From: Dehalococcoidia bacterium
GTDB lineage: Bacteria; Chloroflexota; Dehalococcoidia; GIF9; UBA5629
DNA: 64,000 nucleotides
Direction of reading: 5' to 3'
Assembly: GCA_034435835.1 (NCBI GenBank)
Contig: DAOTWF010000017.1
Span: forward strand, 145,113 to 209,112
The number at the start of each line of letters is the position of its first letter. The stretch's first letter is position 1. Made by a program: the position numbers and the translations under genes. Below the pieces are notes generated by a model. The model did not search any database. It was given only the letters and a program-made list of their open reading frames with translations, and was not told the origin of the DNA. Shown here piece by piece: positions 2,112-63,405 of this stretch.

Positions 2112-3467
2112 CTACTTGCGCCGGAACTGCCTTCTTAATTGTTCGATGGAATGTGAAAGGTCGGAGTCGGTCTTGATGCTCTGTGATATGCGTTGGAGGT
2201 TGCGCAGTATGGTCGAGTCATCTCTGTTGAGCAGGTTACCTATTTCAGTGAGACTGTAATGTTTTTCCTGGCGCAACAGATAGATGACCACCTGTCGCGC
2301 CAAGGTGGCACGTTTGTCCCGCTGTTTTCCCAGTATGACGTCAGGGCTTATGCCGTAATAAGTGGCTACGGCGTCTATCACCAGCTTAGGGGTAAGTGCT
2401 GCTGGGAGCGAGCTCTTTCTCTCGCTCATGTCAGCCAGAGCCTGGAGCGCCATGGTCGTCTCCACCTTACTAGCTCCCGAGAGCTTGGCGTAGGTGAGCA
2501 CACAGTTAAGGGCGCCCTCCAGCTCGCGTACACTGGATTTGAACTGAGTTGCCAGAAGGCGGAGCACTTCGCTGGGTACCACCGTATTGGAGGCGGCTGT
2601 CTTTGCCGTAAGGATGGCGACGCTGGTTTCAAAATCTGGTGGTGACAGGCGGACAACCAGCCCGCCGACAAGGCGGGAGCCCAGCTTGTTGTTGACCGCA
2701 GGTATGGTCTTGGGCAGGCAGTCGGATGTCATCACCATCTGTCCCGAGTTGTAGTACAGGTCATTAAAGATATGCACCAGGAACTCCTGTGTCTGCGTTT
2801 TGCCGCTGAGGAACTGCACGTCATCTATAAGCAGGAAGTCGGTGTTCCTGAAGTGGTCGTGGAACTCATCGATGCTGTTGTTTTTCAGGGCGAGTACGTA
2901 CTGGTTGGTAAACTGCTCAGCGGTGGTGCATATCACCTGGAAACCTCTGGAGCGGGCGGTGTGCGCGATGGCATGTAGCAGGTGCGTCTTCCCTGTGCCT
3001 GTATCCCCGTAAATGAACAGAGGGTTATATTTGGCGCCGGGTGATTCCAGGACCTCAAGGGCAGCGGCGTAGGCTATGCGGTTGCACTCTCCGGGGATAA
3101 AGGTCTCAAAGGTATAACTAATCTTGAGGCGCTCTGGCTTGGTACGGGGCGGCGTCTTGGTCGTTGTGCCCCCGTCGGCATAGGTCTGCGGCTGGGAAGG
3201 CGCTGGCTCGCCGGGAAGCACTGTGAACTGGACATCAACGGTCCTGCCTATCACATTGCTCAGCGTCCGCCTGATCAGGGGGTTGAGTCGCTCCCGCAGC
3301 CATTCGGCAACGAAGGCATTGGGCACACCTACAACGAAGCTGTCTTTTTCAAAGCTTACGCCCTTGGTGTCCTTAAGCCAGGTATCGAAGTTCGGTTTGC
3401 TTACCTGTAGTTGTAGTTGTTCCAGTGCGCTCTGCCAAATTTTTTGCGGCATATCAATGATCTGCAT
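2112..3467 (-). CDS. dnaA: chromosomal replication initiator protein DnaA
   Basis: 451 aa. N-terminal DnaA domain (WQSALEQLQLQVSKPNFDTWLKDT). AAA+ Walker A GDTGTGKTHLLHAIAH. C-terminal DNA-binding helix region (LTEIGNLLNRDDSTILRN). Confidence 0.95.
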   Translation of the reverse strand: MQIIDMPQKIWQSALEQLQLQVSKPNFDTWLKDTKGVSFEKDSFVVGVPNAFVAEWLRERLNPLIRRTLSNVIGRTVDVQFTVLPGEPAPSQPQTYADGGTTTKTPPRTKPERLKISYTFETFIPGECNRIAYAAALEVLESPGAKYNPLFIYGDTGTGKTHLLHAIAHTARSRGFQVICTTAEQFTNQYVLALKNNSIDEFHDHFRNTDFLLIDDVQFLSGKTQTQEFLVHIFNDLYYNSGQMVMTSDCLPKTIPAVNNKLGSRLVGGLVVRLSPPDFETSVAILTAKTAASNTVVPSEVLRLLATQFKSSVRELEGALNCVLTYAKLSGASKVETTMALQALADMSERKSSLPAALTPKLVIDAVATYYGISPDVILGKQRDKRATLARQVVIYLLRQEKHYSLTEIGNLLNRDDSTILRNLQRISQSIKTDSDLSHSIEQLRRQFRRK

Positions 3468-6377: not shown

Positions 6378-7571
6378 GTGGCCATGAAATATGTGGTACT
6401 GATAATCGATGGTGCTGCCGGGTGGGGGCTTGAGGAGCACGGCGGCAGGACCTGCCTGGAGCTTGCCCATCTCCCGAACCTCGATGCTATGGCAAAGGAG
6501 GGGGTTGTGGGGCTGGTAAGGACGGTGCCCGAGGGAATGGAGCCCAGCAGTGCCTGCGCCTGCATGTCGGTGCTGGGCTACGACCCACGCGTCTACTACC
6601 GTGGGAGGAGCGCTATCGAAGCTAGGAGCCTGGGGATACCCATCTTGCGGGACGAGGTCGTCTTCCGCTGTAATCTGGTCACGGTCCAGGAAGGCAGGAT
6701 GCGGAGCTATAGCTCCGGGCATATCAGCACCGAGGAAGCTACGCTTCTTGTTTCCTCCATTGATGAAAGGCTGGGCAGTGACGAGGTCAGGTTCTACCCC
6801 GGCGTCCGCTACCGCCACATATGTAAGATAAAAGGTCACCCGGAGACTCTCGGGGCTCGTTGCACGCCCCCGCATGATATTCCCGAAAAGCCTATAGCCG
6901 AGTATCTGCCGAAGGGGCAGGGAAGTGAGTTTTTGACGGAACTGATGATGCGTTCCCGCGCTGTACTTGAGAACCATGAGGTGAACCGGCAGCGGCAGGC
7001 GAGGGGGGAACTGCCGGCGACCATGATCTGGCTGTTCTGGGGCGCAGGGCAAATACCCGAGATACCACCTTTCAAGCAGGTGTACGGACTGGAGGCAGCA
7101 CTCACTTCTGGTGTGGACCTGCTTCGGGGATTGGCGAAGATGGCGGACATAGCGGTCGTAGATATCCCGGGTGTCACCGATGGGCTGGACAATGACTACG
7201 CTGGCCAGATGGAGGGTGCCCTGGAGGCGCTGGCGGCTTACGACCTGGTGGCCATACATGTTGAGGCACCGGACGAGGCAGCCCATATCGGTTCTGTGGA
7301 GGAGAAGGTGAGAGCCATTGAACTGGTTGACAGCGAGATGGTGGCGCGGATCCGCCGCTGGGACCGCGGGAGGCTGAGGGTGCTGGTACTTCCCGACCAC
7401 TCCACACCAATACAGATCAGGACACATAGCGCGGAGCCAGTGCCCTTTCTGCTCTGGGGTACAGGGTTTACCTCAAATGGTGCTGCGCGCTTTACCGAGG
7501 CTGAAGCTAGGCGGACTGGTGTTTTTCTTGGCGATGGTTATAATATTATGGCAAAATTGCTCCAGGGGTGA
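6378..7571 (+). CDS. archaeal-type cofactor-independent phosphoglycerate mutase family protein (ApgM-like); probable non-canonical homoserine kinase
   Basis: 397 aa. Begins MKYVVLIIDGAAG. Metalloenzyme superfamily motifs (LVAIHVEAPDEAAH, LVLPDHSTP). Placed directly upstream of aspartate kinase. Confidence 0.8.
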   Translation: MAMKYVVLIIDGAAGWGLEEHGGRTCLELAHLPNLDAMAKEGVVGLVRTVPEGMEPSSACACMSVLGYDPRVYYRGRSAIEARSLGIPILRDEVVFRCNLVTVQEGRMRSYSSGHISTEEATLLVSSIDERLGSDEVRFYPGVRYRHICKIKGHPETLGARCTPPHDIPEKPIAEYLPKGQGSEFLTELMMRSRAVLENHEVNRQRQARGELPATMIWLFWGAGQIPEIPPFKQVYGLEAALTSGVDLLRGLAKMADIAVVDIPGVTDGLDNDYAGQMEGALEALAAYDLVAIHVEAPDEAAHIGSVEEKVRAIELVDSEMVARIRRWDRGRLRVLVLPDHSTPIQIRTHSAEPVPFLLWGTGFTSNGAARFTEAEARRTGVFLGDGYNIMAKLLQG

Positions 7572-7574
7572 ACG

Positions 7575-8798
7575 ATGGCGCTTGTGGTACAGAAATACGG
7601 TGGTAGCTCGGTAGCCGATGCCGAAAAGATCAAAAACGTGGCGCGGCGCATAGCCGCCACCCGAGATAAAGGTGACGAGGTCGTGGTGGTGGTTTCTGCG
7701 ATGGGTGATACCACCGATGATTTAATTCAGCTAGCCAGGCAGATAAACCCACGCCCGCCGGAAAGAGAACTCGACCTGTTGCTGTCCACGGGCGAGGTGG
7801 TCTCCTGTACCCTCATGGCTATGGCTTTGAACTATGCGGGCTATAAGGCGGTGAGTCTCACCGGTGCCCAGGCAGGTATCGAGACGGATACCAGCCATAG
7901 CAAAGCCCGCATCCTGCGCCTGGAGCCCAAGCGGGTGGTCAGGGAGCTGGAAAGGGGGAATATAGTGGTTGTCGCCGGCTTCCAGGGTGTTACCCGGGAT
8001 ATGGATGTGACCACCCTGGGACGCGGCGGCTCTGACACCACGGCGGTGGCACTGGCGGCAGCCTTGAAGGCGCAGAGGTGTGAAATCTACACCGATGTCG
8101 AGGGTGTCTACACCGCCGACCCCCGCATCGTCCCGGAGGCACGCAAACTGAAGGAAATCGGTTACGAAGAAATGCTCGAGCTGGCAACCTTGGGTGCCAA
8201 AGTGATGCATTCCCGCGCAGTGGAGCTGGGGCAACTCTATAACGTGCCGATACTGGTCGCCTCCAGCTTTACGGATGCGCCCGGTACAATGATTCGTGGA
8301 GGGACTGCCATGGAAGTAAGAAACAGAGTCCGAGGTATTGCCCATGATGTCAACGTGGCTAAAATAACCTTGGTCGGCGTTCCTGACCGCCCTGGGATAG
8401 CTGCGGCGGTTTTTCAGCCTCTGGCTAAAGCCAATATCAGCGTGGATACCATCGTCCAGAATGCCAGCATCAACAACATCACCGACCTGACCTTTACCGT
8501 CACCCGTAGCGACCTGGACAAGGCGATGTCTATCGTGCAGGAGGTAGCCAGATCCATCGGGGCAAGGGAATGCGTCAGTGACTCTACTCTGGCTAAAGTG
8601 AGCATTGTGGGGACGGGGATGCAGGGAGCACCCGGCTATGCTGCCACCATGTTTCGCGCCCTCTACGAGCAGGGTATCAATATACAGCTCATCACCACCT
8701 CAGAGATAAGGATAACCTGCATTATCTCTGAGGACAGAGTTAAGGATGCGGTGAGGGCGCTGCACAAGGCGTTTGAATTGGAAAAGGCGGAGCTTTAA
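7575..8798 (+). CDS. lysC: aspartate kinase
   Basis: 407 aa. Begins [13 protein letters not shown]. Amino-acid kinase fold followed by two C-terminal ACT domains. Confidence 0.92.
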
Positions 8799-9183: not shown

Positions 9184-10020
9184 ATGCCAGACCGCGAAGA
9201 GGACAAAGCTAAAATAAGGCGACGGGCAAGCCAGGAGGCGATATCTTTGGCGATGCAAAACCGCTGGCAGGAGGCGGTGGCGGTAAACCAGAGCATAATT
9301 GAGCTTTTTCCTACAGATATTGATGCCTATAACCGCCTGGGCAGGGCTTATATGGAACTTGGTGATTTTGCTAAAGCCAAGCAGGCTTATGCCAAGGTGC
9401 TCGAGCTTGACCCCAACAACTCCATCGCCCAGAAGAACCTGCAGCGCCTGTCTCTATTACCTGATAAGAAGGTGGAGGTGAAGGAGGAACGCCATGAGGT
9501 CTCCCCGGGAGCTTTTATCAGCGAGATGGGGAAGACAGGCATCGTGGGGTTACGGGAGCTGGGGCCGCGTGAAGTTCTGGCAAAGATGGCGCCCGGAGAC
9601 CAGGTCATTTTGAAGGTGAAGGGGCAGCGGGTTATTGCGGAGAATGAGCATGGGGAGTACCTCGGTGTGGTGGAACCTCCCCACGGGCTCCGCCTTGCCA
9701 GGCTGATGCTGGGCGGGAACCGTTACGCCAGTGCCATCGTGAGCATAGATGTCCACGGTGTCAAGGTCATTATCAGGGAGACATTCCAGCACCCGAGTCA
9801 GGCGGGAAAGCTATCCTTCCCTGTGAAAGCGATGGAGGGGTTCCAGCCCCATGTGAAGGACACGCTGCTCCGGGGCGGGGCTGAGGAGGAAGAAGAGGTC
9901 GAGGAAGCTGAAATGATGGAGCTCGAGGAAGGCGAGCTTTTGCCCGAGGGCTTTTCCATATTTGAAGGCGTGCCCCCGGAGGAGCCTCTGATCGAAAACT
10001 CCCTTTTTGAAGAACAGTAA
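9184..10020 (+). CDS. TPR-repeat protein with an acidic C-terminal tail
   Basis: 278 aa. Tetratricopeptide-like repeats ([32 protein letters not shown]). Glu-rich tail [18 protein letters not shown]. Confidence 0.65.
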
Positions 10021-10048
10021 ACCATTCCCGCTTTCAGGAGTGTATGCT

Positions 10049-12502
<2,454 letters not shown>

Positions 12503-42315: not shown

Positions 42316-43023
42316 ATGAAAAAACTGTATCGCGAAAGAAAGATTGGGGCGGTGCCTTGCAAGGTTACGGGACTGCTTGGTGGCATACTCTTGCTGCTGG
42401 GCGGCGCCATGCTGGCTTCCTGTGCTTCCCCACCTCCGCCTCCGCCATCGCCAAACCATGCACCACGGATACTCTCGCTGGCTGCTGATGAGCTTGAGGT
42501 GCCGGTGATGCAGGGCACCAGGATAGTGTGTACCGCAGTGGATGTAGAAGGCCATACCCTGAGCTACAGCTGGTCAGCCAGCGGTGGCACCATCCAGGGA
42601 GATGGCAACGAGGTAGTGTGGGTAGCTCCGGAGGCACCCGCTAAGTACACTGTGCAGGTGACCGTAAGCGATGGCAACGGCGGTCAGGCGAGCGAGTCAC
42701 TGACCCTGACCGCTTTCGCCAGAGCCAATAATCCGCCGAAGATAGTGGCTTTGACAGTAGACGGGATGCAACCGAAGGACGTTAATAGCGCCCGTAACTA
42801 TGCCACCCATATTATCAAGTGCGTTGCCGAAGACCCCGATGGGGACACGCTGCAGTATAGCTGGGTGGCGACCGGTGGTAAGCTGACCGGGCAGGGGGCT
42901 GAGGTGGGCTGGACGGCACCGGGGATGACCGACGAGTACACTGTCACGGTGGTCGTCAGCGACCGCAGAGGCGGTATAGCCAGCGGCAGCGTGCGGTTCA
43001 GCGTGCACTGCTGTGGCAAGTGA
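42316..43023 (+). CDS. lipoprotein with a polyproline linker and two PKD/Ig-like repeats
   Basis: 235 aa. Signal peptide with an LASC lipobox. PPPPPPSP linker. Internal duplication (LSYSWSASGGTIQGDGNEVVWVAP...YTVQVTVSDGNGG and LQYSWVATGGKLTGQGAEVGWTAP...YTVTVVVSDRRGG). Confidence 0.7.
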   Translation: MKKLYRERKIGAVPCKVTGLLGGILLLLGGAMLASCASPPPPPPSPNHAPRILSLAADELEVPVMQGTRIVCTAVDVEGHTLSYSWSASGGTIQGDGNEVVWVAPEAPAKYTVQVTVSDGNGGQASESLTLTAFARANNPPKIVALTVDGMQPKDVNSARNYATHIIKCVAEDPDGDTLQYSWVATGGKLTGQGAEVGWTAPGMTDEYTVTVVVSDRRGGIASGSVRFSVHCCGK

Positions 43024-43024
43024 C

Positions 43025-43774
43025 CTAGAACGACTTAGCCTTTCCCTGAGAATTCACCGGCACCAGCCTCACCTTACCCCAGACGCCCAGCCTGTCGTCT
43101 AAGATCACCACCGCCCCGATAAGTCCGGGGACTGTCTTCGCCCATTCCAGCGCTGGCTCTATGTCATCGGCGGATCTCACCCTGTTGCCCAGGGCGGTGG
43201 CGGCGGCATCGGCAAGGGCTGCTGAAGGCGCCAGGGAGATGGCGGCATCAGCCAGACCGAAGCTCAACGAATGCCCCACGGTGCCGGAGGAGGTGCAGAC
43301 CCCCAGAGGCGTTTCGCTTGGAGATATTTTTAGGGCGACCCTGCCGGTGAGCGGAGAGCTGCCGGCATAGATGCCCACCAGTCTAGGCTTTGATATCTTA
43401 AGGAATATGTCACCGCCATTCTCCACGATTACTTCTGAGGTGAAGGCAAGCAAGTCTCTACCCACCGCCTCGGCGATGGCACCAGCCACTGCCGCCATGG
43501 GACCCACCACTGCTTTTTCGGCGGCTATCGCCATTTCTTTCACTATGGGTGGTGCTGTCTCGTCCACGGCGATGGGCTCCAGAGTGTGGAGAAAATCTGG
43601 GTGGCTGGATATGTATTCCTCGAGGGATGTGCGGTGTCTTAGCACTGACGCCAGCGCCTCAGCCTCGAGATGGCGGCGGGTGCGAATGTAAAGGTCGGTC
43701 TCCTTAACGGTCACGGTGAAGGCGATGAGGCTGGTGTCTTTAACCCAGTGGCGGTAGGTCCTCGGCTGGTACAT
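43025..43774 (-). CDS. UPF0280/ApbE-like family protein
   Basis: 249 aa. Begins MYQPRTYRHWVK. Gly/Ala-rich core. Family assignment is from memory and tentative. Confidence 0.5.
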   Translation of the reverse strand: MYQPRTYRHWVKDTSLIAFTVTVKETDLYIRTRRHLEAEALASVLRHRTSLEEYISSHPDFLHTLEPIAVDETAPPIVKEMAIAAEKAVVGPMAAVAGAIAEAVGRDLLAFTSEVIVENGGDIFLKISKPRLVGIYAGSSPLTGRVALKISPSETPLGVCTSSGTVGHSLSFGLADAAISLAPSAALADAAATALGNRVRSADDIEPALEWAKTVPGLIGAVVILDDRLGVWGKVRLVPVNSQGKAKSF

Positions 43775-44185
43775 TCAGAAGTAGAGCTCCATGGCACGCG
43801 GCGGGCAGGCTTTGATGCACAGTTCGCAGACGACGCATTTGGAGTTGTCGAAGATTACCTTTCTCGTCCCCGGCTCCAGTGAGAAGGCACCGCTGGGGCA
43901 GAGGGTGATGCAAGCGCCGCAGTGGGTGCACCTAACTTCGTTGCGCACTACGTCTTGGCTTAACGATTGTATTTTCACTCCGACGTCGGTAAGGTATTTC
44001 ACCCCCTTGTCGTAGTTCCGCTGCTCGCCTGTGAGCTCCATTACCAGCAGCCCCTCCTCGCCTGGGGTTACCGATGCCTTGAGTATGTTGAACTCCAGGT
44101 CGAAGTCCTTCACCAGCCTGTAGACTATTGGCTGACTGGTGAGGCGTTTGGGGAAGTGGAGTACTATCCTTTTAGAGACGACCAT
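43775..44185 (-). CDS. NIL-domain ferredoxin (2x[4Fe-4S]), homocysteine-biosynthesis-associated
   Basis: 136 aa. N-terminal NIL domain. CTHCGACITLCP and CVVCELCIKACP cluster motifs. Adjacent to the COG1900 gene. Confidence 0.85.
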   Translation of the reverse strand: MVVSKRIVLHFPKRLTSQPIVYRLVKDFDLEFNILKASVTPGEEGLLVMELTGEQRNYDKGVKYLTDVGVKIQSLSQDVVRNEVRCTHCGACITLCPSGAFSLEPGTRKVIFDNSKCVVCELCIKACPPRAMELYF

Positions 44186-44194
44186 ATTTTTTCC

Positions 44195-45403
44195 TTATTC
44201 CAGTATGGGGCGTTCCTCCAGCGGCTTGATGGTGATGCCCGATTCGGCGCCGGGAAGCGGCGCCACCGGTTCGGTGAGCAGGAATTCACCCCTCTTGATC
44301 CACTCCTTGAGTATATTGGCTATCTCCACCGCCTTCGGGTAGCTGGAGAGCGAGGCGGTGGGCACCTCTTCGCCCTGTACTTTGATGACGCCGCTCTTGA
44401 GCTCGGCGTAGCTGACCTCCCCCAGGACATCGGGTTTTCTCTGGGGATAAGCCTCGCTATAGTCCACCACCGGGGCGATTATATCGGCATCGGTCACCAG
44501 GGTATACTTCAGTATTTCCTCGGAGAGTATCGGTATGGGGACACCGATGCCCACAGTGATGGTGCAGCCGTAGCCGAGGAAGCTGGTGCCCACGAGCCAC
44601 TGCGGGCTCATCTGCTTCAAATCACCGATCACCGCCATCGTGCCTGCGGGCCTTCTGGGCACACCATTTTCAGTGCGTGGCACGCCCGGGTTGTGCTGCG
44701 TGCCGTGCCAGGCGACATAGCCGATGCCGCCGCCGAGGAAGATGCGCGTGCCGATGCCTATGGTCCTGTAGTACGGGTCGTTGAGCAAGGGCGAGAGCTG
44801 CCCAGAGGAGGAATAGTTGGCGTTGCCCAGGTTTGGCTTGAGCACACCCATGTAGGTGTAAAGGACGCGGTTGCCGAGGTTTACCGCCACATTGTAGTTC
44901 TGGTAGGCGTTCCTGACGTTGAACAGCACCGCCTCGTTGATGTCCTTTATGTTTATCAGCGTCTCCAGTTTTCTCTTGGGATAGCAGTCCGTGCCGTAGG
45001 CGGTGGCTATCAGTCTGATGTCCTTACCTGCTACCAGCTCCTCGATGACGTGCCCGCCGCCGTAGCGGAACTCGCCGGGATAGATGCGGTTCTTGGGGTC
45101 ATCTTCGGGCAGGGCAGTGGCGCCGAGGAATATGTCCATCGCCGCCAGCCCGGTATAAGCGGGGACATCGTTAAGGTACACCTTCCCGCCGCCCAGCTTT
45201 ATCCTGGGCTTGGTGTGGCCCAGGTTGAGGAAAACGCCGGATGAGCACATGGGACCGAAGGTGCCGGTGGTGACCACGTCCACCTCCCTGGCGGTCTGGC
45301 TGATGCCTTTTTTCCTGGCGATCTCGATGATCTCCTCCGCGGTGACCACCACCGCCTGCCCCTTCCTGATCTTCTCGTTTATCTCGGCTATCGTCTTTGC
45401 CAT
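44195..45403 (-). CDS. COG1900/DUF39 homocysteine biosynthesis protein (methanogen MA1821-type sulfur-incorporation enzyme)
   Basis: 402 aa. Conserved COG1900 blocks (VVTTGTFGPMCSSG, LGGGIGYVAWHG). Stop overlaps the thi4 start codon. Confidence 0.85.
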   Translation of the reverse strand: MAKTIAEINEKIRKGQAVVVTAEEIIEIARKKGISQTAREVDVVTTGTFGPMCSSGVFLNLGHTKPRIKLGGGKVYLNDVPAYTGLAAMDIFLGATALPEDDPKNRIYPGEFRYGGGHVIEELVAGKDIRLIATAYGTDCYPKRKLETLINIKDINEAVLFNVRNAYQNYNVAVNLGNRVLYTYMGVLKPNLGNANYSSSGQLSPLLNDPYYRTIGIGTRIFLGGGIGYVAWHGTQHNPGVPRTENGVPRRPAGTMAVIGDLKQMSPQWLVGTSFLGYGCTITVGIGVPIPILSEEILKYTLVTDADIIAPVVDYSEAYPQRKPDVLGEVSYAELKSGVIKVQGEEVPTASLSSYPKAVEIANILKEWIKRGEFLLTEPVAPLPGAESGITIKPLEERPILE

Positions 45404-46170
45404 TAATTCCTTCCCTTTAGCCCCTCGAGGGCTAGCTCGGCGGCTTTTCTGCCCGAGAGCAGCATACCGCCGAATATGGCTCCCATGCGCGGCGCCCCGA
45501 AAACGGCGTTGGCTGCCATGCCGGCGACTATCAGCCCGGGGCAGACCTCCCTGGTGTTCTCCACGATCGTCCTTTCGCCGACCTCAGCCCACATCGATTT
45601 TTCTCCCTTAACCTCCAAGCCGACGCCGGTCTTTCTGGCGACTATACGGCAGAGCTCGGCATCGTGCCCAGTGGCGTCGATGACCACCTTTGCCCTGACA
45701 CCCAGCGGGTCAACGTGCAGGTTCGCCAGCGAGACTGCACTCCAGTTTAGCACCAGTCCCACTATCCTGTCATCCTCCCGTACCATTACATCCTCGATGC
45801 TGATAAGGTTGAATACCTTTACACCGGATTTTATCGTCTGCGAACACATGGTTGCCACCGCCTCAACGGCGTCGGCGACGTAGTAGCCTGGCTGGTACTC
45901 ATTGCTCCTGATGCCGAACTCATCCAGTATACCCTTAGCCTCGCTCTGCACCACGATGTGGTTGAACATCATACCCCCGCCCCACATGCCCCCGCCGACG
46001 CTCAACCTTCGTTCAAAGATGACCGCCTTTGCCCCAGCCTTCGCCAGATAATAACCGGCGGTCATCCCCGAGGGACCGGCGCCGGCTATAGCCACATCCA
46101 CCTCAGTGGCGGCGAGGAGTTCCTTGAAATAGCTCTCCACTATAGCCTTTGATATCGTCACCTCGTCCAT
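45403..46170 (-). CDS. thi4: thiamine thiazole synthase, Thi4 family (archaeal/sulfide-dependent type)
   Basis: 255 aa. FAD motif [12 protein letters not shown]. Active-site region [11 protein letters not shown] with no Cys at the position of the yeast suicide cysteine. Confidence 0.9.
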
Positions 46171-46218
46171 GTGATTCCTCCTGTACTCCGCGCTATGCCC
46201 GATGCGCTGCTGTGGTGT

Positions 46219-47475
46219 CTAGGTTCCCTTCCCCAGCACCGCCCTCAGCTCGACGGGAGTGAGGCTTTGCTGTTCGCCGCTGACCATGTTGCGCAGTGTC
46301 AGTTTGCGGTTTTCCATCTCCTCCTCTCCGATGATGATGGCGTAGCCTGTGCCCAGGCTGTCTGCTTGGCGCAACTGTGCCTTCAGGCTGCGGTCGCCGG
46401 TTGCCATCACCGCACTGATACCCTGTGTCCGCAGGCTGGCGGCGAGCTTCACTGCCTCCGCCTTTGCCTTGTTGCCCAGGTGGGCGATGAACACGCAAGG
46501 CGAGGGTAATGGCGGCACCGGGATGCCCTGCTTTTTCAGGTTGAGCACTACCCTGTCCATACCCGCCGCAAAGCCCACCGCCGGAGTCGGCTTGCCGCCG
46601 AGCTGCTCGATAAGGTCATCGTACCTGCCGCCGCCTCCCAGCGCGCTCAGGGCACCCCCATTAAGTGGCTGGACCTCGAACACCGTCCTGGTGTAGTAGT
46701 CCAGTCCCCGCACCAGCCGGTGGTTGAGGCTGAAGGACAGGGTCAGGCTTCTCAGGTATTCAGTCACCGCTGTGAAGTGTGCCCGGCAGTCGGCACAGAG
46801 AAAGTCCGTGCTCCAAGGGGAGCTATCGGCTATGTGCTGGCACTCCGGACGTTTGCAGTCCAGCAAACGCAGCGGGTTTTTCTCCAGCCTTGTCTCGCAG
46901 TCGGGACAGAGGTCGGCTGCCCTCCTCTGGTAATAGCCCTTAAGCGCCCTGACATAGTCGGGGCGGCAGACCTTACAGCCGATGCTGTTTAGCTGCACGG
47001 TTATCTCCTTGAGCCCCAAGGAGGTAAAGAACTGGCATGCTAGGTGGATGACCTCGCTATCGAGGGCGGGGTCGGCATCGCCGATGGCTTCGCAGCCGAA
47101 CTGGTGGTGCTGACGGTAGCGCCCTGCCTGGGGGCGTTCGTAGCGGAATGCGGAGGCTAGGTAGTATAGCTTTACCGGCTGGGGCAGGTTGTCCATGCCG
47201 TGTTCGATGTAGGCACGGCACACCGGGGCTGTCCCCTCGGGTCTGAGCGCCAGCGCCTTGCCGCTGCGGTCTTTGAAAATGTACATCTCCTTGGTGACGA
47301 TGTCGGTGCCCTCGCCGATGCTGCGGGTGAAAAGAGCAGCCTCCTCGAACACCGGCGTGTCCAGGCGCTGGTAACCGTAGAGCTGGCATACCTCGGCGGC
47401 TTTAGCCTCGACATACCTCCAGTATGCCTGCTCTTCAGGGAGGATGTCCACTGTGCCCCTTGGCGCCTTATACAA
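46219..47475 (-). CDS. hisS: histidine--tRNA ligase
   Basis: 418 aa. Class II motifs (FRYERPQAGRYRQHHQ, GGGRYD). C-terminal anticodon-binding domain. Confidence 0.93.
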   Translation of the reverse strand: MYKAPRGTVDILPEEQAYWRYVEAKAAEVCQLYGYQRLDTPVFEEAALFTRSIGEGTDIVTKEMYIFKDRSGKALALRPEGTAPVCRAYIEHGMDNLPQPVKLYYLASAFRYERPQAGRYRQHHQFGCEAIGDADPALDSEVIHLACQFFTSLGLKEITVQLNSIGCKVCRPDYVRALKGYYQRRAADLCPDCETRLEKNPLRLLDCKRPECQHIADSSPWSTDFLCADCRAHFTAVTEYLRSLTLSFSLNHRLVRGLDYYTRTVFEVQPLNGGALSALGGGGRYDDLIEQLGGKPTPAVGFAAGMDRVVLNLKKQGIPVPPLPSPCVFIAHLGNKAKAEAVKLAASLRTQGISAVMATGDRSLKAQLRQADSLGTGYAIIIGEEEMENRKLTLRNMVSGEQQSLTPVELRAVLGKGT

Positions 47476-56722: not shown

Positions 56723-58009
56723 TTATGGCTGGCAGGATCGAGCTCTAAAGGTCAGGGTAAGGACGTTGGCGATCCTGATTTCGTCGCCGTCTTTGAGCGG
56801 CTGTTTGCCCTCGCCCCTGAGATCGGAGCCGTTAAGTTCAGTGCCGTTGGTGCTGCCGGAGTCCTCGATGTAGTAGCTGCCACCTTCACAGTAAAGTCGG
56901 ATGTGTTCTCTGGAGATCATGGCTGCCTTTTCCGCATCCACCAGGGAGCGGAAGTCCTTCCTCCCCAGAACGCCGCCGTTTGCTGGCAGGGACACCTCTT
57001 TGCCGTCCGGGGCAACGAGTCCGGGACCAGAGCCCAGGGTGGCGGTTCTGGTGCCGCTGGACTCGCCCGCCGACCGTGTGCTGGCGGTGCAGGAGAGGGT
57101 GCCCAGACGCGTGCCGGCGGTGTCTGCGGCATAAGCCAGGGCGGGCTTTCTGGTGACGAAGACGATCGCCGCCACGGTGGCGGCAGCCATCAGCGCAGCC
57201 AGGAGGACATAGAGTAGCCTGGGGCTGAAGCCATCGCCGAAGCTGAGGGGGAAGGTACTGTCCCCTCCCGTGCCGCTTGCGGCGCCGCTGCTGGTTTCCG
57301 GGGTAACGGTGGTGGTGGCAGCGGGGGTGGCGACGGTGATCGTGGTGCTGGCGGTCACTGTGCCGTCCTCATTGGTGGCGGTGAGCGTGTAGGTGGTGGT
57401 GGAGGTGGGGCTCACCACGTATGAGCCGGAGGCGGGGACGGAGCCGATTTCGGGCGATATGGTGACGGTGACACTCCTTTCAAGGACATCGCTCACTGTC
57501 CAGATCAGGGTGGCTGTCTCGCCGGGCTTTATGTAGCTGGGGCTGGCGCTGAAGGCGTTGACCACCGGCGGAGGGTCGATTTGCTGCCGGGGTTGGGGCT
57601 GGGGTTGGGGCTGCGTTACCACGACCACGCTGGGGCGCACGCACACCGCCCAGGTGCATTCACAGGGCCAGGAGCACCTAGGGTAGCAGGGGCAGCAGGG
57701 CTCGCACCACCGACAGCAGTCATGTGGGGCGGGTGGTGGGGGTAAAGGCGGTGCAGGCGGTGCCGGTGGTGATGGCGGTGCAGGCGGGGAACCCGAAGTA
57801 CCGGCTGATGCCGAAGCTGATGCGGTGGCGGTCACCGTGACTGTGACCGTGGGGTCAGCCCCGGTGGCGTTGACGGTGACGGTAGCCGTGGCAGAGGAGT
57901 CAGCCTGCGCCGAATTGTCTTCGGCGTATACTGACGTGACCCCCAGTAACAGGGCAGAGCACATCAGGAGTGCTGCTGCCAGGGCAAGGAATGGTTTTTT
58001 GAAGCTCAT
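56723..58009 (-). CDS. single-pass membrane protein: signal peptide, Thr/Val-rich and Pro-rich linkers, a 10-Cys motif, one Ig/PKD-like repeat, TM, and a cytoplasmic C-terminal FHA domain
   Basis: 428 aa. N-terminal signal peptide. CCRWCEPCCPCYPRCSWPCECTWAVC. Ig-like repeat ...GETATLIWTV...TTTYTLTATNEDG. TM LLYVLLAALMAAATVAAIVFV. FHA core (ISREHIRLYCEGGSYYIEDSGSTNGTELNG). Confidence 0.8.
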   Translation of the reverse strand: MSFKKPFLALAAALLMCSALLLGVTSVYAEDNSAQADSSATATVTVNATGADPTVTVTVTATASASASAGTSGSPPAPPSPPAPPAPPLPPPPAPHDCCRWCEPCCPCYPRCSWPCECTWAVCVRPSVVVVTQPQPQPQPRQQIDPPPVVNAFSASPSYIKPGETATLIWTVSDVLERSVTVTISPEIGSVPASGSYVVSPTSTTTYTLTATNEDGTVTASTTITVATPAATTTVTPETSSGAASGTGGDSTFPLSFGDGFSPRLLYVLLAALMAAATVAAIVFVTRKPALAYAADTAGTRLGTLSCTASTRSAGESSGTRTATLGSGPGLVAPDGKEVSLPANGGVLGRKDFRSLVDAEKAAMISREHIRLYCEGGSYYIEDSGSTNGTELNGSDLRGEGKQPLKDGDEIRIANVLTLTFRARSCQP

Positions 58010-58111
58010 CTTTTACCTCCTTTCTTTTTTCTATTCGTTGACCTTGACTAACAGGGCGGAGAATAGCAACAGTACCGCCGTTATTGTGAAGATCATGGTC
58101 CTGAAGCTCAT

Positions 58112-59701
58112 TTATTTCACCTCCGTGTTATTTTTATTTTCTTTCCTGAAAGCGATGCTCAGTTTGCCTGCCAGTTCGATTACATCGCCATCTGAAAGCG
58201 CATGCCTGCCGGTGCCTTTAATCTCTTTGTCGTTGAGCTTGGTGCCGTTGGTGCTGCTGCGGTCCTCGATGTAGTACTGACCGTTTTCATACCAGATGTT
58301 GAAGTGCTGCCTTGATATGTAGATGGCGTTCTCCGGAAGCATGGAACTTTCGAAGTCATGCCGGCCAAAGGATCTGGCGTTGCCAGCCAGCAGTATTTCA
58401 CTGCCGTCGGGCAATACCAGCTTCGCCGGCGGGGCCTCCACCACGGGCGTGGTCGTTGGCAGTGTATTTGCGTACGGGGTCACGCCAGGCTGGGTGGTGC
58501 CTTCCCGTACGGCTGGCTCTGGCATATGACGGGTCTTCGCCGGTCTCCTCGCCATCACGGCGACGAGGACGATTATCGCCATCACCGCCAGTGCCAGCAG
58601 GGCAATAAGTCCCCAGAGCAGGTAGGGTGGCTGTTCCACGGTGATAGTTACCGACACGGACTGCGCGGTACCGTCAGCATAGGTGGCGGTGAGGGTATAG
58701 GTGGTGGTCTGCTGTGGTGCTACCTGCACTGTGCCGCTTGTCACTACGGTGCCCAAGCTGCTGATGGACACGTGTGTAGCCCCGGGGGCACTCCAGGAGA
58801 GAGTTGCTGTCTTCCCCTTCTTTATCACGGTCTGGTCGGTGCTGAAGATGGGTGGTGTTCTGGGTTTGACCGTTATGGTCAAGGACGATGACGCTGTCTT
58901 GTCCGATTTACCTTTCGCCATCAGCGTGTAGGTAGTGGTGGTGGTGGGGGTGACCGAGGTGGAGCCGGAGGCGGCGACCGTCCCGATGTCCGGAGATATG
59001 GTGACGCTGCTGGCATTGGTGGTGGTCCAGGTGAGCGTCACTGTTTCCCCTGCCTCGATGGAGGTCTTGCTGGCAGTGAAGGAGTTTATCACCGGCGGTT
59101 TGACCTGCTCCGATGGTGGGGCGGGTATGTCAGGCGGGTAGTAGCCAGCGGTGTAGTTGAAGCTCAGCGAGCGAGTTGACCAGACTCCGCCGGAGAGGAA
59201 CCACATCCTCCACACATACCTGCCAGGCGGGTCGAAGGGCTCGGCAACGAAGGGCCCGAGCTGCCAGACGCCGGCACGTGGGATATACCAGCGGTAGCAG
59301 AGCCAGTGTCCGTAAGGCACGGTGCCTACGGGGTAGTACTCCCAGAGGTAGAAATAGCCCGCTCCGCTGACTGATACGATAAGGTAACAAGCCCAGTTGC
59401 GGTAGAGGTTGGTCAAAATCTGTCCGTAGCTGTTTACCAGGCAGGCGCCCACTATCGAGCCCGGGGCAGTTCCCGGTGCCACCTCGGGCGGCGAAATCTG
59501 CAGCGAGGGCCATGTCTGACCGTACACCTCTACCCTTACCGGGGGCTCCATTGACTCCTGCCCCCCATAAGGCGGCTGCCATGGCTCGGTGGGGTTCGGT
59601 GGCGGGAAGGGATAGTCCTGCGCTGCGGCGGGAAATACTATGCCCGGGGCAGTCAGAGAAGCCAGGACGACTATCAGAAAGACCGAGAGTAACCCTTTCA
59701 T
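58112..59701 (-). CDS. single-pass membrane protein: signal peptide, Trp/Tyr-rich module, two Ig/PKD-like repeats, TM, and a cytoplasmic C-terminal FHA domain
   Basis: 529 aa. Signal peptide. W/Y-rich block (YLWEYYPVGT...GVWQLGPF...RMWFLSGGVW). Two repeats ending TTTYTL(M/T)A. TM LLWGLIALLALAVMAIIVLVAV. FHA core (ISRQHFNIWYENGQYYIEDRSSTNGTKLN). Confidence 0.8.
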   Translation of the reverse strand: MKGLLSVFLIVVLASLTAPGIVFPAAAQDYPFPPPNPTEPWQPPYGGQESMEPPVRVEVYGQTWPSLQISPPEVAPGTAPGSIVGACLVNSYGQILTNLYRNWACYLIVSVSGAGYFYLWEYYPVGTVPYGHWLCYRWYIPRAGVWQLGPFVAEPFDPPGRYVWRMWFLSGGVWSTRSLSFNYTAGYYPPDIPAPPSEQVKPPVINSFTASKTSIEAGETVTLTWTTTNASSVTISPDIGTVAASGSTSVTPTTTTTYTLMAKGKSDKTASSSLTITVKPRTPPIFSTDQTVIKKGKTATLSWSAPGATHVSISSLGTVVTSGTVQVAPQQTTTYTLTATYADGTAQSVSVTITVEQPPYLLWGLIALLALAVMAIIVLVAVMARRPAKTRHMPEPAVREGTTQPGVTPYANTLPTTTPVVEAPPAKLVLPDGSEILLAGNARSFGRHDFESSMLPENAIYISRQHFNIWYENGQYYIEDRSSTNGTKLNDKEIKGTGRHALSDGDVIELAGKLSIAFRKENKNNTEVK

Positions 59702-59865
59702 GTTTTTGACTTAACTCCCGAACATGACATTTTCTTGATTTAAATATACGCGCCTCGGGGGTGGGTTGCTTGACTGCGGGATGACAGACCGCTGACAGTT
59801 TTTTGACAAGACGGGGAATGGTGGAGGATGTTTCCGGGGGTCCTAAGGGGATGGGCAACAGGAGC

Positions 59866-60963
59866 TTAGAGTGTATAGAGCTTAAGCTGTATTCTACCGG
59901 CGAGCTCTATGAGGTCACCGTGGTTGAGGGCGACGGGACCTCTGCCGCGGATCTCCATGCCGTTCAGACTGGTGCCATTGGTGCTATCCAGATCTTCAAT
60001 ATAGAACTGCCCCTGCTGCGATTTGACCTCAAAATGTTGTCTCGACACCAGCGCCAGGTCGTTTATATCCAGCGCCCTGGCGAGGTCTTCCCTGCCGACC
60101 CTCCTGCCACCGCTGTCGAGTGGAATTTCCATACCGTTGGGCAGGGTTATCTTTGCCCTGACGGTGGTTGCCGGAAAAGAGGTCGGTACCTCTCGCAGCG
60201 CCGACGCAACAGATGGCTTTTTCCGCCTGGGGTGTGGGGCGTATATCCGGTACAGGTAAAAGCCAAGCAGGGCGAAAGCAATGGTGAGCAGGGCTGAGAA
60301 GCAGATTACCGCTGCCAGCGGCGATGCCACCAGTGTGCGCAACCGGTCGGTAAATTTACTTTCCGGCGGCGTAGCCGGCAGCGTCTGTCCGGTGGGCTTT
60401 TCGGTGCTCGCGGCTTTAACATAGGTCCAGTATACGAGTTTGTCATGAGGTGGGTCGGTGTCTCCGCCAGCCCAGTTGCCGTTGCTGTAGAACCATATTC
60501 TGTAGGCATGCTGTCCTTCCGGCTCGGCTGCGCCCGGGGTGAAAGGACCGAGCCTCCAGACTCCGCTTTCGGGCAGATGCCATTTGTATGCCAGCCATCT
60601 TCCCGGCTGCTCTGCGCCCTCGGGGAAGTGCTCGTAGATATAGAGCCAGCCCGGTGCATTGATGTCCACATCTAAATACCAGTTCTGGTCTCCGCTGACC
60701 CCGGCCCCGTTTTCCGCCGAAGGACCGATGAAGGCGGGGATGAAGTTGGGAGAGGCGTTATCCGACTGTGCTGAAGGTCCCAGCTGCACATACCGGACTG
60801 GCGGCTTGAGCTCATCGCCGGGCTGGTCTTCGGCGGGTGTCTCGGGCACGGTGGCGTTGTCCGTTGCTGGACCCACCGCCCACACATCTGCTGTCCCGGC
60901 GAACAGCACCCACAGGGCGGCGAAAAACAGAGCGCCGACAAAAAACAGTAATCTATACCTCAT
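59866..60963 (-). CDS. single-pass membrane protein: signal peptide, Trp/Tyr-rich module, TM, and a cytoplasmic C-terminal FHA domain
   Basis: 365 aa. W/Y-rich block (YIYEHFPEGA...GVWRLGPF...RIWFYSNGNW) homologous to the one in the 58112 protein. TM. FHA core (VSRQHFEVKSQQGQFYIEDLDSTNGTSLNG). Confidence 0.8.
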   Translation of the reverse strand: MRYRLLFFVGALFFAALWVLFAGTADVWAVGPATDNATVPETPAEDQPGDELKPPVRYVQLGPSAQSDNASPNFIPAFIGPSAENGAGVSGDQNWYLDVDINAPGWLYIYEHFPEGAEQPGRWLAYKWHLPESGVWRLGPFTPGAAEPEGQHAYRIWFYSNGNWAGGDTDPPHDKLVYWTYVKAASTEKPTGQTLPATPPESKFTDRLRTLVASPLAAVICFSALLTIAFALLGFYLYRIYAPHPRRKKPSVASALREVPTSFPATTVRAKITLPNGMEIPLDSGGRRVGREDLARALDINDLALVSRQHFEVKSQQGQFYIEDLDSTNGTSLNGMEIRGRGPVALNHGDLIELAGRIQLKLYTL

Positions 60964-61982
60964 TGTGCTTGCTGCACCTTAAGCTGTTTTATCAAATAGC
61001 CGCTTTCCGAGGCGAGCGCTGCCTGCATGGCGCGGGCATCGGCGAACCTATCGTCCGGGGAGAACATCACCGCCTGTGCCAGGCACCTTGCCACACGCTT
61101 TGATACGCCCAGGGAGATAAGGTGGTCGGCAAGGACGGCGGCTTCACTGAAGGAACGGGGCCAGTTGTATCTGAACAGTTTCAGGCAGATATCGTTGGGT
61201 TCATCAAGCGTAAGAAGATAGATGCAGGTCTGTGCCAGTCCGCAGAGGTCGCACCTGTGGTCGCTTTTCCTGCCGATGAACAGCTCCGGGATATCGAAGC
61301 CCTTGTTGGTTATCTGGGTGAACGAGTCATAGTATGTCTTGTCCTTATCAGGGTCAAGGTTCTTTGCCGTGCCGAAGTCGATGAGCTTCACCGTGCCATC
61401 GCTACAGAGCATGATGTTCTTGGGGTTAACGTCCCTGTGGACGATGCCGGCGGCGTGTATATAGGCGAGTGCGTCCAGTAGCTGGCACGCCCAGAGGACC
61501 ACCTGCTGCTCCTCGAGGGGCGACCGCGGTGACAGGGTGAGCAGTGGCTCCCCGTTCAGGTACTCGAGGACGAGGTGAAATTCGCCCTTGTGATAGAAGT
61601 CTTCTATATACCTGACGATGTTAGGGTGGTGCAGCCTCTTCAAATAGCTGGCTTCCAGCAGTAGCTTTTCCAGGTATACATTGTCCATGGTGGTGCCGCG
61701 GCGCGGTGTTTTGATGATGCAGGGCATGCCCTTCTTGCGTTCCAGGGCTCGCCAGATGGTCGCCATGCCGCCCTGTTTGAAAAGTGGCGTGATCAGTGCA
61801 TAGCGCCCGTTAACTATGTGAGCCTTGTCCGCTGAGGGGATGGGGGCGTGTGCCTGTTTCTGCTCGGGGCGAGGGCTTCCCTTATTGCGTTTTCGGAAGT
61901 AGACCAGCAGGGCGACGCATATCGCCAGGGCGCCGTATATCGAGACCATTGCAATGTCAGAAAAGTCCAGTGCCCACATCAT
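60960..61982 (-). CDS. Hanks-type Ser/Thr protein kinase with an N-terminal membrane anchor and no extracellular sensor domain
   Basis: 340 aa. N-terminal TM MVSIYGALAICVALLVYF followed by basic residues. Kinase motifs (VAIK-like IIKTP, HRDVNPKNIM, DFG). Stop/start overlap with the flanking genes. Confidence 0.88.
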   Translation of the reverse strand: MMWALDFSDIAMVSIYGALAICVALLVYFRKRNKGSPRPEQKQAHAPIPSADKAHIVNGRYALITPLFKQGGMATIWRALERKKGMPCIIKTPRRGTTMDNVYLEKLLLEASYLKRLHHPNIVRYIEDFYHKGEFHLVLEYLNGEPLLTLSPRSPLEEQQVVLWACQLLDALAYIHAAGIVHRDVNPKNIMLCSDGTVKLIDFGTAKNLDPDKDKTYYDSFTQITNKGFDIPELFIGRKSDHRCDLCGLAQTCIYLLTLDEPNDICLKLFRYNWPRSFSEAAVLADHLISLGVSKRVARCLAQAVMFSPDDRFADARAMQAALASESGYLIKQLKVQQAQ

Positions 61983-62782
61983 TTCCTCCCGATGGTGGTC
62001 TCAGCCGAGACTACAGCCTCCCATGAGGGCAGGTTGGCGGGCCTGGCTATTACCACCGATATATTGTCCGGTCCTCCCGCCAGGTTAGCCTGAGCAATGA
62101 GATCGGCACATGCCCGCCTGGGGTCGAGTGAACTCAGCACGGTCTCGGCTATCATTTCCGGGGGCAATATTCCGCAGAGACCATCAGAGCAGAGCAGGAT
62201 ATGGTCACCGGCGTAGAGTTTCAAGTGGTACAGGTCAGGGGCGGCATTTGAAGAATAGCCCAGGGCTCTGGTTATCTCATTGCGGCGGGGGTGATACCTC
62301 GCCTGTTCCTCGGTCAGCAGCCCGGCGTCCACCAGCTCCTGGACCATGGAATGGTCCTTGGTCACCTGGATGGTCTCGCGGCTATTGATGATATAGCAAC
62401 GGCAATCGCCGATGTGTGCCACGTACAGGTTATTTCCCAGCACCAGGGCTGCGGTGAGGGTGGTTCCCATACCGGCGAGCTCGCTGCGGCCGGCGGCGTT
62501 GAGCACGGCAGCACCCGCCCTGGAGCAGGCAGCGCTCAGGATGGAGAGCGGCGGTGCCGTGGGCTCGGTGAGCAGGCGCGAGATACACTCGGCGTGGAAT
62601 GTCCTCACGGCAAGGTCGCTGGCAACCTCTCCGGCATTATACCCGCCGATGCCGTCCGCCACAGCGAAGAGGCCGGCGGTGACAACTCCTGAATTTGTCT
62701 GGAGGTCAAACCTCATAGAGAGGACGCTGTCCTCGTTGAGGCTTCTCACCAGCCCTTTATCAGAACCATAGCCTATTTCCAA
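61979..62782 (-). CDS. PP2C-family Ser/Thr protein phosphatase
   Basis: 267 aa. Motifs FAVADGIGG and CSDGL, and a terminal GGPDNISVV. Confidence 0.9.
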   Translation of the reverse strand: MEIGYGSDKGLVRSLNEDSVLSMRFDLQTNSGVVTAGLFAVADGIGGYNAGEVASDLAVRTFHAECISRLLTEPTAPPLSILSAACSRAGAAVLNAAGRSELAGMGTTLTAALVLGNNLYVAHIGDCRCYIINSRETIQVTKDHSMVQELVDAGLLTEEQARYHPRRNEITRALGYSSNAAPDLYHLKLYAGDHILLCSDGLCGILPPEMIAETVLSSLDPRRACADLIAQANLAGGPDNISVVIARPANLPSWEAVVSAETTIGRK

Positions 62783-62784
62783 AA

Positions 62785-63405
62785 CTAACCACCCCCGTTT
62801 TCTGTCCCTTCCGTTTCCTTCTGCAGCCGGAAGGTCAGGGTGAGTTCCGGCTGCCCGGCGAGCTCGAGCTTATCGCCGTCCTTCAGCGGCTTTTTCTGCC
62901 CGTGTATATCAACGCCGTTCAACTTCGTATGGTTGGTGCTTCCCTTGCCTTCAGGACCGTAGTCCTGGACGTAGTGTCTGCCCCGGCTGCAGGTGATTAA
63001 CAGGTGCTGGCGTGAGACTGCCATCAGTGTCTCGTAGGGCAGTGCGTCGGCGAAATCAGCGCGCTCTATGAAGACAGGGTCGCCGCCGAGAACGAGCTCG
63101 GTGCCATTGGGCATTATCACCTTAGCCTTCGGCGGAGAATGGACTGTGCCCCGCCTGCCCCTGCCTTTGATTGCTATATCTGCGGTGGCGAAATACTTCC
63201 CGCAGGTATAGCAGAAGAACCTGGCGGCTTTATTCGGACTCTGACATCTGGGGCAGATGGTCTTATCTTCGGGGCTGATATCACCGGCTGTGGGGACAGA
63301 GCGCCGGTACCTGGTGGAGACCGTTTCGTCGCGGTCGCCCTTCACGCTGTGGGCTTGAGGTGGTAGTTTGGGACTTTTTTCCTTCACCATCATGATTACC
63401 AGCAC
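62785..63405 (-). CDS. FHA-domain protein with an N-terminal zinc-ribbon
   Basis: 206 aa. CPRCQ...CYTCG zinc ribbon. C-terminal FHA (VSRQHLLITCSRGRHYVQDYG...STNHTKLNG). Confidence 0.8.
   Translation of the reverse strand: MLVIMMVKEKSPKLPPQAHSVKGDRDETVSTRYRRSVPTAGDISPEDKTICPRCQSPNKAARFFCYTCGKYFATADIAIKGRGRRGTVHSPPKAKVIMPNGTELVLGGDPVFIERADFADALPYETLMAVSRQHLLITCSRGRHYVQDYGPEGKGSTNHTKLNGVDIHGQKKPLKDGDKLELAGQPELTLTFRLQKETEGTENGGG

Follow-up and report, generated by a model that had tools for sequence, protein, structure and literature searches.

What do five co-oriented genes of a Dehalococcoidia bacterium, namely hisS, thi4, a COG1900 (DUF39) gene, a gene for a NIL-domain ferredoxin (NIL-Fd) and a COG2122 (UPF0280) gene, encode together? 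They lie in a 64-kb stretch of a metagenome-assembled genome (MAG), here called the window, in which gene limits were read from the open reading frames (ORFs). Very probably, the whole region is an hisS-thi4-COG1900-NIL/ferredoxin-COG2122 operon of an anaerobic member of the Dehalococcoidia (Chloroflexota), serving sulfide-using synthesis of homocysteine and thiazole, and most likely two known sulfide-consuming reactions are expressed from this one operon. The analysis itself gave the identities of the genes, their key residues, the layout of the operon and its conservation across relatives; enzymatic steps and sulfur donor are deduced from homologues.

A preliminary description of this DNA had reported four tightly packed genes downstream of hisS, and this proved correct: the limits 43025-46170 enclose exactly the last four genes of five co-oriented minus-strand ORFs, with successive gaps of 48, -1, 9 and 0 nt (Table 1). 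The thi4 and COG1900 genes meet in a TAATG, read directly, in which the thi4 stop codon shares 1 nt with the COG1900 start codon; the earlier wording, that the COG1900 stop overlaps the thi4 start, had reversed the order. The NIL-Fd gene follows COG1900 after the 9-nt gap, and the ATG of the COG2122 gene comes right after the NIL-Fd stop codon (TGAATG). The genes from thi4 to COG2122 are translationally coupled, which makes joint expression as a small sulfide-assimilation unit probable. A 425-amino-acid ORF antisense to COG1900 (43967-45244, plus strand) gave no match in the family scan and was discarded as spurious.

Table 1. Coordinates of the operon features and of the aspartate kinase gene within the window
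Feature	Position	Strand	Evidence
hisS, histidine--tRNA ligase	46219-47475	-	TIGR00442, 479.3 bits (cutoff 286.75); PF13393, PF03129
hisS-thi4 spacer, 48 nt	46171-46218	-	ribosome-binding site AGGAGG, 7 nt ahead of the thi4 ATG; read directly
Thi4-family thiazole synthase, non-Cys (sulfide-dependent) type, 255 aa	45403-46170	-	PF01946, TIGR00292
COG1900/DUF39 (HcyBio), predicted L-aspartate-semialdehyde sulfurtransferase catalytic subunit (COG1900a type), 402 aa	44195-45403	-	PF01837
NIL-domain + 2x[4Fe-4S] ferredoxin, 136 aa	43775-44185	-	PF09383, PF12838
COG2122/UPF0280 (ApbE-like), 249 aa	43025-43774	-	NF003323, PF27030
Aspartate kinase	7575-8798	+	NF005155, 596 bits; ~36 kb from the operon, other strand

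All four family assignments made in the preliminary description passed curated cutoffs in a profile check. The COG1900 product matches HcyBio (PF01837) over profile positions 1-349 of 349, with E = 4e-155 and 516 bits against a cutoff of 26.2, and it contains neither CBS domains nor an inserted ferredoxin domain, no Fer4 match being present in its 402 amino acids. Since it has no CBS domain, feedback by S-adenosylmethionine (SAM) or methionine through such a domain is not expected. Relatives found by homology search are 84 to 100% identical and bear the public names “homocysteine biosynthesis protein” or “L-aspartate semialdehyde sulfurtransferase” (here shortened to L-ASST), a 50%-cluster look-up labels the homologues “DUF39 family” and “L-ASST,” and an identical protein is encoded in NCBI assembly GCA_964594975.1. 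Searching by sequence, we found no solved COG1900 structure.

L-ASST homologues of the COG1900a type possess two nearly universal cysteines, of which, in MA1821, Cys54 is essential and Cys131 dispensable (PMC12068725). Both family cysteines are present in the window protein as Cys53 (45245-45247, GPMCSSG) and Cys140 (44984-44986, GTDCYP), and once 13 full-length sequences of a 50%-identity representative library are aligned with it, these are the only two Cys columns common with the closer representatives. As MA1821 was outside this alignment, the equivalence of Cys53/Cys140 with its Cys54/Cys131 is drawn from the sequence motifs, the conserved columns and the spacing; C58 and C135 of P0122, a CBS-bearing representative, are 77 residues apart, the same distance as between residues 54 and 131 of MA1821.

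COG1900 has functionally distinct subgroups, MMP16 being the main coenzyme M synthase (PMC12068725), and some Dehalococcoidia MAGs contain two COG1900 copies in different contexts (L013/L017 and L039/L042; see below). The window protein could accordingly be another member of the family, such as a coenzyme M synthase-like (MMP16-type) sulfurtransferase acting on a different aldehyde, but we consider this highly improbable. The methanogenesis-marker-16 model TIGR03287 gave it 129 bits against a cutoff of 364, with a match that ends at profile position 278 of 391; the inserted ferredoxin domain is lacking, both COG1900a cysteines are present, and close homologues carry homocysteine biosynthesis or L-ASST names. 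A separate NIL-ferredoxin and COG2122 also follow, as in genetically proven systems (PMC5764234). With the model so far below its cutoff, an MMP16-type (COG1900d) assignment was rejected, and we continue with the COG1900a assignment.

The NIL-Fd protein combines a NIL domain (PF09383, E = 1.8e-16) with a Fer4_7 domain (PF12838, E = 6.6e-14) and has two CxxCxxCxxxCP motifs, CTHCGACITLCP (43895-43930) and CVVCELCIKACP (43802-43837); it is proposed to be the electron-donating subunit of the sulfurtransferase. The COG2122 protein scores 307.7 bits with NF003323 (PRK04334), for which the cutoff is 271, and belongs to the precomputed Pfam family PF27030 AbpE_bact. It matches PDB entry 2o34 over residues 16-237 (E = 1.7e-40) with the Cys/GHS motif kept, and its single cysteine, Cys160, lies within the motif GVCTSSGTVGHSLSFG. 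The preliminary description had listed UPF0280 as a member of the cluster, and it is one, though not as an unexplained extra: UPF0280 is another name for COG2122, the third component that genetics has shown to be required. A role as a sulfide or persulfide trafficking factor is proposed for it from PMC5764234 and from the work on MA1715 in PMC12068725.

Thi4 matches PF01946 (E = 1.9e-87) and scores 343.8 bits, against a cutoff of 148.3, with TIGR00292, the equivalog “sulfide-dependent adenosine diphosphate thiazole synthase”; a GAGPSG dinucleotide-binding motif begins at residue 30. Its PDB matches are Thermovibrio THI4 (7rk0, E = 1e-83) and the archaeal enzymes 6hk1, 4y4n and 4y4m (E = 1e-74 to 1e-79), and it is alike over its full length to the non-Cys THI4s of M. 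jannaschii and M. igneus (4y4n/4y4m) and of Thermovibrio ammonificans (7rk0), with E = 1e-74 to 1e-84. To locate the yeast suicide cysteine, Cys205, the PDB was searched with a yeast THI4 fragment, and a MAFFT alignment followed. Residue 205 of yeast 3fpz is the second Cys position, bracketed here, of Q-C-[C]-M-D-P-N; S stands there in the deposited chain, as the sole mismatch to the Cys of the query. We take this S to be the dehydroalanine left after sulfur loss. At this position the window protein has His152 (45715-45717, LHVDP), and the same column contains His in the methanogen enzymes 4y4n and 4y4m and Met158 in Thermovibrio THI4. The window Thi4 is therefore of the non-Cys type.

Two further residues, Asp154 (45709-45711) and His169 (45664-45666), align with Asp160 and His175 of TaTHI4, which have metal-ligand roles (PMC8454699), and are predicted to be metal ligands here as well. 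The window enzyme is thus like the methanogen THI4s (4y4n/4y4m) in its His at the Cys205 position, its Asp/His metal ligands and its GxGxxG motif, whereas Thermovibrio THI4, the best-studied bacterial case, differs by the Met at the Cys position. The preliminary description was right that the suicide cysteine is lacking, as in the archaeal enzymes, but had pointed to ATGHD, which is not the Cys205 site. That region carries the metal-ligand His; yeast has TTGHD and the Cys-type prokaryotic Thi4s have DATGHDA, and because ATGHD is present in both types, it cannot tell Cys from non-Cys Thi4. A retained suicide cysteine, or the loss of the catalytic cysteines of COG1900, had been named as grounds for abandoning the proposal; His152 occupies the former position, and Cys53 and Cys140 are both kept.

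Taken with the characterized homologues, the last three genes would make up the “DUF39 pathway” for homocysteine, in which homoserine would not be an intermediate. The COG1900 subunit would add sulfur to L-aspartate semialdehyde, the persulfide probably forming on Cys53, the equivalent of the essential Cys54 (PMC5764234, PMC12068725). The NIL/2x[4Fe-4S] ferredoxin would give the electrons that reduce the thio-intermediate to the thiol, and COG2122 may help to deliver sulfide or persulfide sulfur. We infer from homologues (PMC4045070, PMC5764234) that the COG1900 product catalyzes the conversion of aspartate semialdehyde and sulfide to homocysteine, and the pairing of COG1900 with the NIL-ferredoxin, implicated in this reaction by the preliminary description, stands. 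Thi4, by comparison with the enzymes of PMC8454699, would be a metal-dependent, multiple-turnover synthase of the adenosine diphosphate thiazole that uses sulfide.

Some points weigh against assigning the whole region to sulfide-using homocysteine and thiazole synthesis. The first gene of the co-oriented run, hisS, is probably co-transcribed with the cluster, as judged by spacing alone. The sulfur species and the number of electrons used by L-ASST are unresolved even in Methanosarcina (PMC12068725), and the enzyme functions in the window organism are deduced from its genes. The genes metA/metX, metY/metB/metC, thiG/thiS and thiC/thiD/thiE/thiN are absent from the ~75 kb annotated out of the 252-kb contig.

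As to regulation, Rfam at gathering thresholds detected neither a thiamin pyrophosphate (TPP) nor a SAM riboswitch, one tRNA being the sole match in the 64 kb, and the 48-nt spacer ahead of thi4 is too short for a riboswitch. Scans for promoters and terminators around the operon gave counts not above those of shuffled sequence.

The preliminary description regarded such a cluster as unusual outside archaea. This does not hold, because the host is a member of the Dehalococcoidia and both the DUF39 pathway and non-Cys Thi4s are documented in bacteria. In Desulfovibrio alaskensis, the DUF39 protein Dde_3007 is needed for homocysteine synthesis; DET0921 of Dehalococcoides, which is said to lack the canonical homoserine-based routes, is its orthologue, and DUF39 genes often adjoin genes for a ferredoxin and COG2122 (Kuehl et al. 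2014, PMC4045070). The DUF39 protein, the NIL/ferredoxin and the COG2122 protein are each required in D. vulgaris Miyazaki, where homoserine is no intermediate and the fitness profiles of DvMF_0044 (COG2122) and the DUF39 gene correlate with r = 0.98; Dehalococcoides seems to employ the DUF39 pathway as well, with genes DET0921:DET0919 (Price et al. 2018, PMC5764234). “Methanogen-type” sulfur-assimilation genes were noted in deltaproteobacteria and Chloroflexi, the Dehalococcoidia MAGs CG2_30_46_9 and RBG_13_51_36 being among the carriers (Mukai et al. 2017, PMC5424206). Both MAGs are in our survey of relatives described below (loci L025 and L048), each with the order thi4-COG1900-NIL-Fd-COG2122. 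Non-Cys THI4s have been surveyed in many bacteria and complement an Escherichia coli thiG mutant (Joshi et al. 2021, PMC8454699). Thus the pathway with its three components, and its presence in the class Dehalococcoidia, were already known.

Compared with these systems, the window cluster contains the same three families as Desulfovibrio (Dde_3007; DvMF_1464, DvMF_0262, DvMF_0044), its COG1900 likewise lacking CBS domains, but the three genes are scattered in Desulfovibrio and are contiguous and translationally coupled here, with thi4 joined upstream, and the pathway of the window is predicted from its genes. The predicted cluster DET0921:DET0919 of Dehalococcoides mccartyi has the same three-gene order in the same bacterial class. 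With MA1821-MA1822 and MA1715 of Methanosarcina acetivorans the cluster has in common a COG1900a protein with both cysteines, a separate NIL/ferredoxin and a COG2122 helper, whereas methanogen L-ASSTs carry a C-terminal CBS regulatory domain (PMC12068725) that the window protein lacks. Non-Cys THI4 genes have been described beside TRASH-domain and cobalt/nickel genes (PMC8454699), and the neighbor here is a homocysteine operon instead.

The pathway having first been dissected in Methanosarcina, and representatives with the methanogen-like CBS architecture being 50 to 56% identical to the window COG1900, one might suppose that the bacterium recently acquired the cluster from methanogenic archaea by horizontal transfer, which would make it an oddity there. 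We find this scarcely credible: the GC content of the cluster (0.587) is indistinguishable from that of the window (0.577), the operon and its flanks (hisS and a PKD-domain gene) are kept across many Dehalococcoidia species at 75 to 94% identity, the methanogen-type CBS domains are missing, and anaerobic bacteria widely possess the pathway (PMC4045070, PMC5764234, PMC5424206). Recent archaeal transfer was rejected on composition and conserved synteny, and the matching GC content together with class-wide synteny favors a long-resident operon over a recent import.

Conservation was assessed by scanning one genome per species, which gave 80 loci with 75 to 94% identity to the window COG1900, nearly all of them labeled as Dehalococcoidia, Dehalococcoidales or Chloroflexota MAGs. 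NIL-Fd lies directly downstream of COG1900 in 63 of the 80 loci, and in 60 both NIL-Fd and COG2122 follow. Where the upstream flank could be scored, Thi4 was found directly upstream of COG1900 on the same strand in 31/74 loci, and all 31 of these Thi4s have His/Asp/His at the three key positions. The hisS gene precedes the cluster in 17/80, including most of the closest loci (L003, L004, L006-L008, L010). Three loci (L032, 3022-9527; L051; L056) show the extended order Rrf2-cysK-thi4-cysE-COG1900-NIL-Fd-COG2122-nifS, with thi4 sitting between both cysteine-synthesis genes; the profile scores were 477 for cysK (cutoff 351), 222 for cysE (cutoff 211) and 599 for the nifS homologue in L061 (cutoff 531). 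Such relatives with cysK, cysE, Rrf2 and nifS support a loose sulfur-assimilation neighborhood around thi4-COG1900. They also lend some support to the dedicated sulfide-assimilation module of the preliminary description, apart from its being unusual.

Other loci depart from this plan. L052 and L075 (3035-8317, CP070842.1) have a solo COG1900 in a locus that lacks both NIL-Fd and COG2122, with thi4 ~335 nt downstream and divergent tusA, nifS and nifU upstream. A second context devoid of NIL-Fd and COG2122 (L044, L061, L058, L064, L039) has the order Rrf2-(cysK)-COG1900-nifS-AIR-synthase-family (AIRS)-second nifS. Both kinds of locus occur in some MAGs, namely PCSL01 (L013, L017) and CAYQZZ01 (L039, L042), which suggests COG1900 paralogues with possibly different partners. 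A nitroreductase-family gene of ~183 amino acids (PF00881, E = 9e-33) was also observed between hisS and the cluster in seven loci: it replaces thi4 directly upstream of COG1900 in L020, L023, L035 and L077, and it is followed by cysK in L028, L034 and L072, then by thi4 in L028 and L072.

A distant lineage was represented by 80 metagenome loci with CBS-bearing COG1900. The triad recurs there: NIL-Fd is directly downstream of COG1900 in 56/80 of these and COG2122 lies downstream of it in 35/80, and in six (L090, L093, L104, L106, L122, L123) Thi4 is divergently adjacent to COG1900-CBS. All six Thi4s have DATGHDA; at the yeast Cys205 position, four have Cys (TCVDP) and two apparently have Glu. 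HcyBio is among the genes recurring near suicide-type Thi4s, for which a sulfur relay to Thi4 was proposed (PMC13325395), and the four Cys-type Thi4s beside COG1900-CBS agree with that listing. In those prokaryotic clusters, as in the window, Thi4 is linked to HcyBio/COG1900, the difference being that the window Thi4 is non-suicide (His152), co-oriented with COG1900 and translationally coupled to it.

The thi4-COG1900 linkage thus takes either of two orientations, involves either Thi4 type and appears in two lineages distant from each other, and since it recurs across loci, it is probably not accidental. It is tempting to assume a shared sulfur delivery, in which COG2122, and possibly the NIL-ferredoxin, serves both enzymes as one mechanistic module. 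The TAATG coupling of the two genes, their adjacency in 31/74 scorable Dehalococcoidia loci, its persistence in rearranged form near nifS-nifU and tusA in L052 and L075, the divergent Thi4s of the distant lineage, the relay proposed for suicide-type Thi4s (PMC13325395) and the description of MA1715 (COG2122) as a sulfur-trafficking protein (PMC12068725) are all in line with this. However, non-Cys Thi4s need no COG2122 partner to function with free sulfide, either in vitro or in E. coli (PMC8454699); in over half of the related genomes the triad is kept while Thi4 is not next to it; the loci L052 and L075, where Thi4 does adjoin COG1900, lack both COG2122 and NIL-Fd; and the clustering with cysK, cysE and Rrf2 in relatives is equally explained by plain co-regulation. 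We therefore regard shared delivery as unlikely. Slightly more doubtful still is its more specific form, that the non-suicide Thi4 and the homocysteine sulfurtransferase are one sulfur-delivery unit in Dehalococcoidia, with COG2122 (perhaps also the NIL-ferredoxin) feeding both, and that the linkage marks an unrecognized sulfur donor system of Thi4. General clustering and co-regulation of sulfur-assimilation genes fits the linkage at least as well as mechanistic coupling does.

The chief value of these results is an accurate annotation of the operon. This uncultured member of the Dehalococcoidia probably forms both methionine and the thiamin thiazole with free sulfide as the sulfur source, bypassing the textbook pathways, which matters when auxotrophies and cross-feeding are predicted for anoxic sediments and aquifers. 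As the pathway, its components and its presence in the class are already published, no open question becomes newly testable; a modest lead is the repeated linkage of thi4 to the homocysteine operon and to cysK, cysE, Rrf2 and nifS, with a possible COG2122-type service to Thi4.

Among the other genes of the window, the aspartate kinase that the preliminary description had placed upstream of the homocysteine precursor is real, although its distance and opposite strand give no evidence of linkage to the operon. A phosphoglycerate-mutase-like gene (6378-7571, plus strand), whose end is 3 nt from the start of the aspartate kinase gene that follows, matches TIGR02535, “proposed homoserine kinase,” with 514 bits against a cutoff of 446, and its Dehalococcoides homologue DET_RS08350 complements E. 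coli thrB (GapMind 2026 preprint, 10.1101/2024.10.14.618325). It is therefore probably a non-canonical homoserine kinase/phosphotransferase (HomK) of threonine synthesis.

Convergent with the COG2122 gene and 2 nt from it lies a plus-strand gene (42316-43023) for a 235-amino-acid protein with a signal-peptide/lipoprotein-like N terminus and PKD/Big_9 domains; its synteny with the operon is kept in many relatives, and a functional tie to the cluster is improbable. The window also contains dnaA (2112-3467, minus strand) and gyrA (10007-12502, plus strand), and gyrB is located just left of it (L083, 676-2604); the window therefore adjoins a probable chromosomal replication origin. The cumulative GC skew climbs across the window. 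Near the other end, a signaling cluster on the minus strand (56723-63405) consists of successive genes for FHA-domain proteins, together with those for a PP2C phosphatase and a Ser/Thr kinase.

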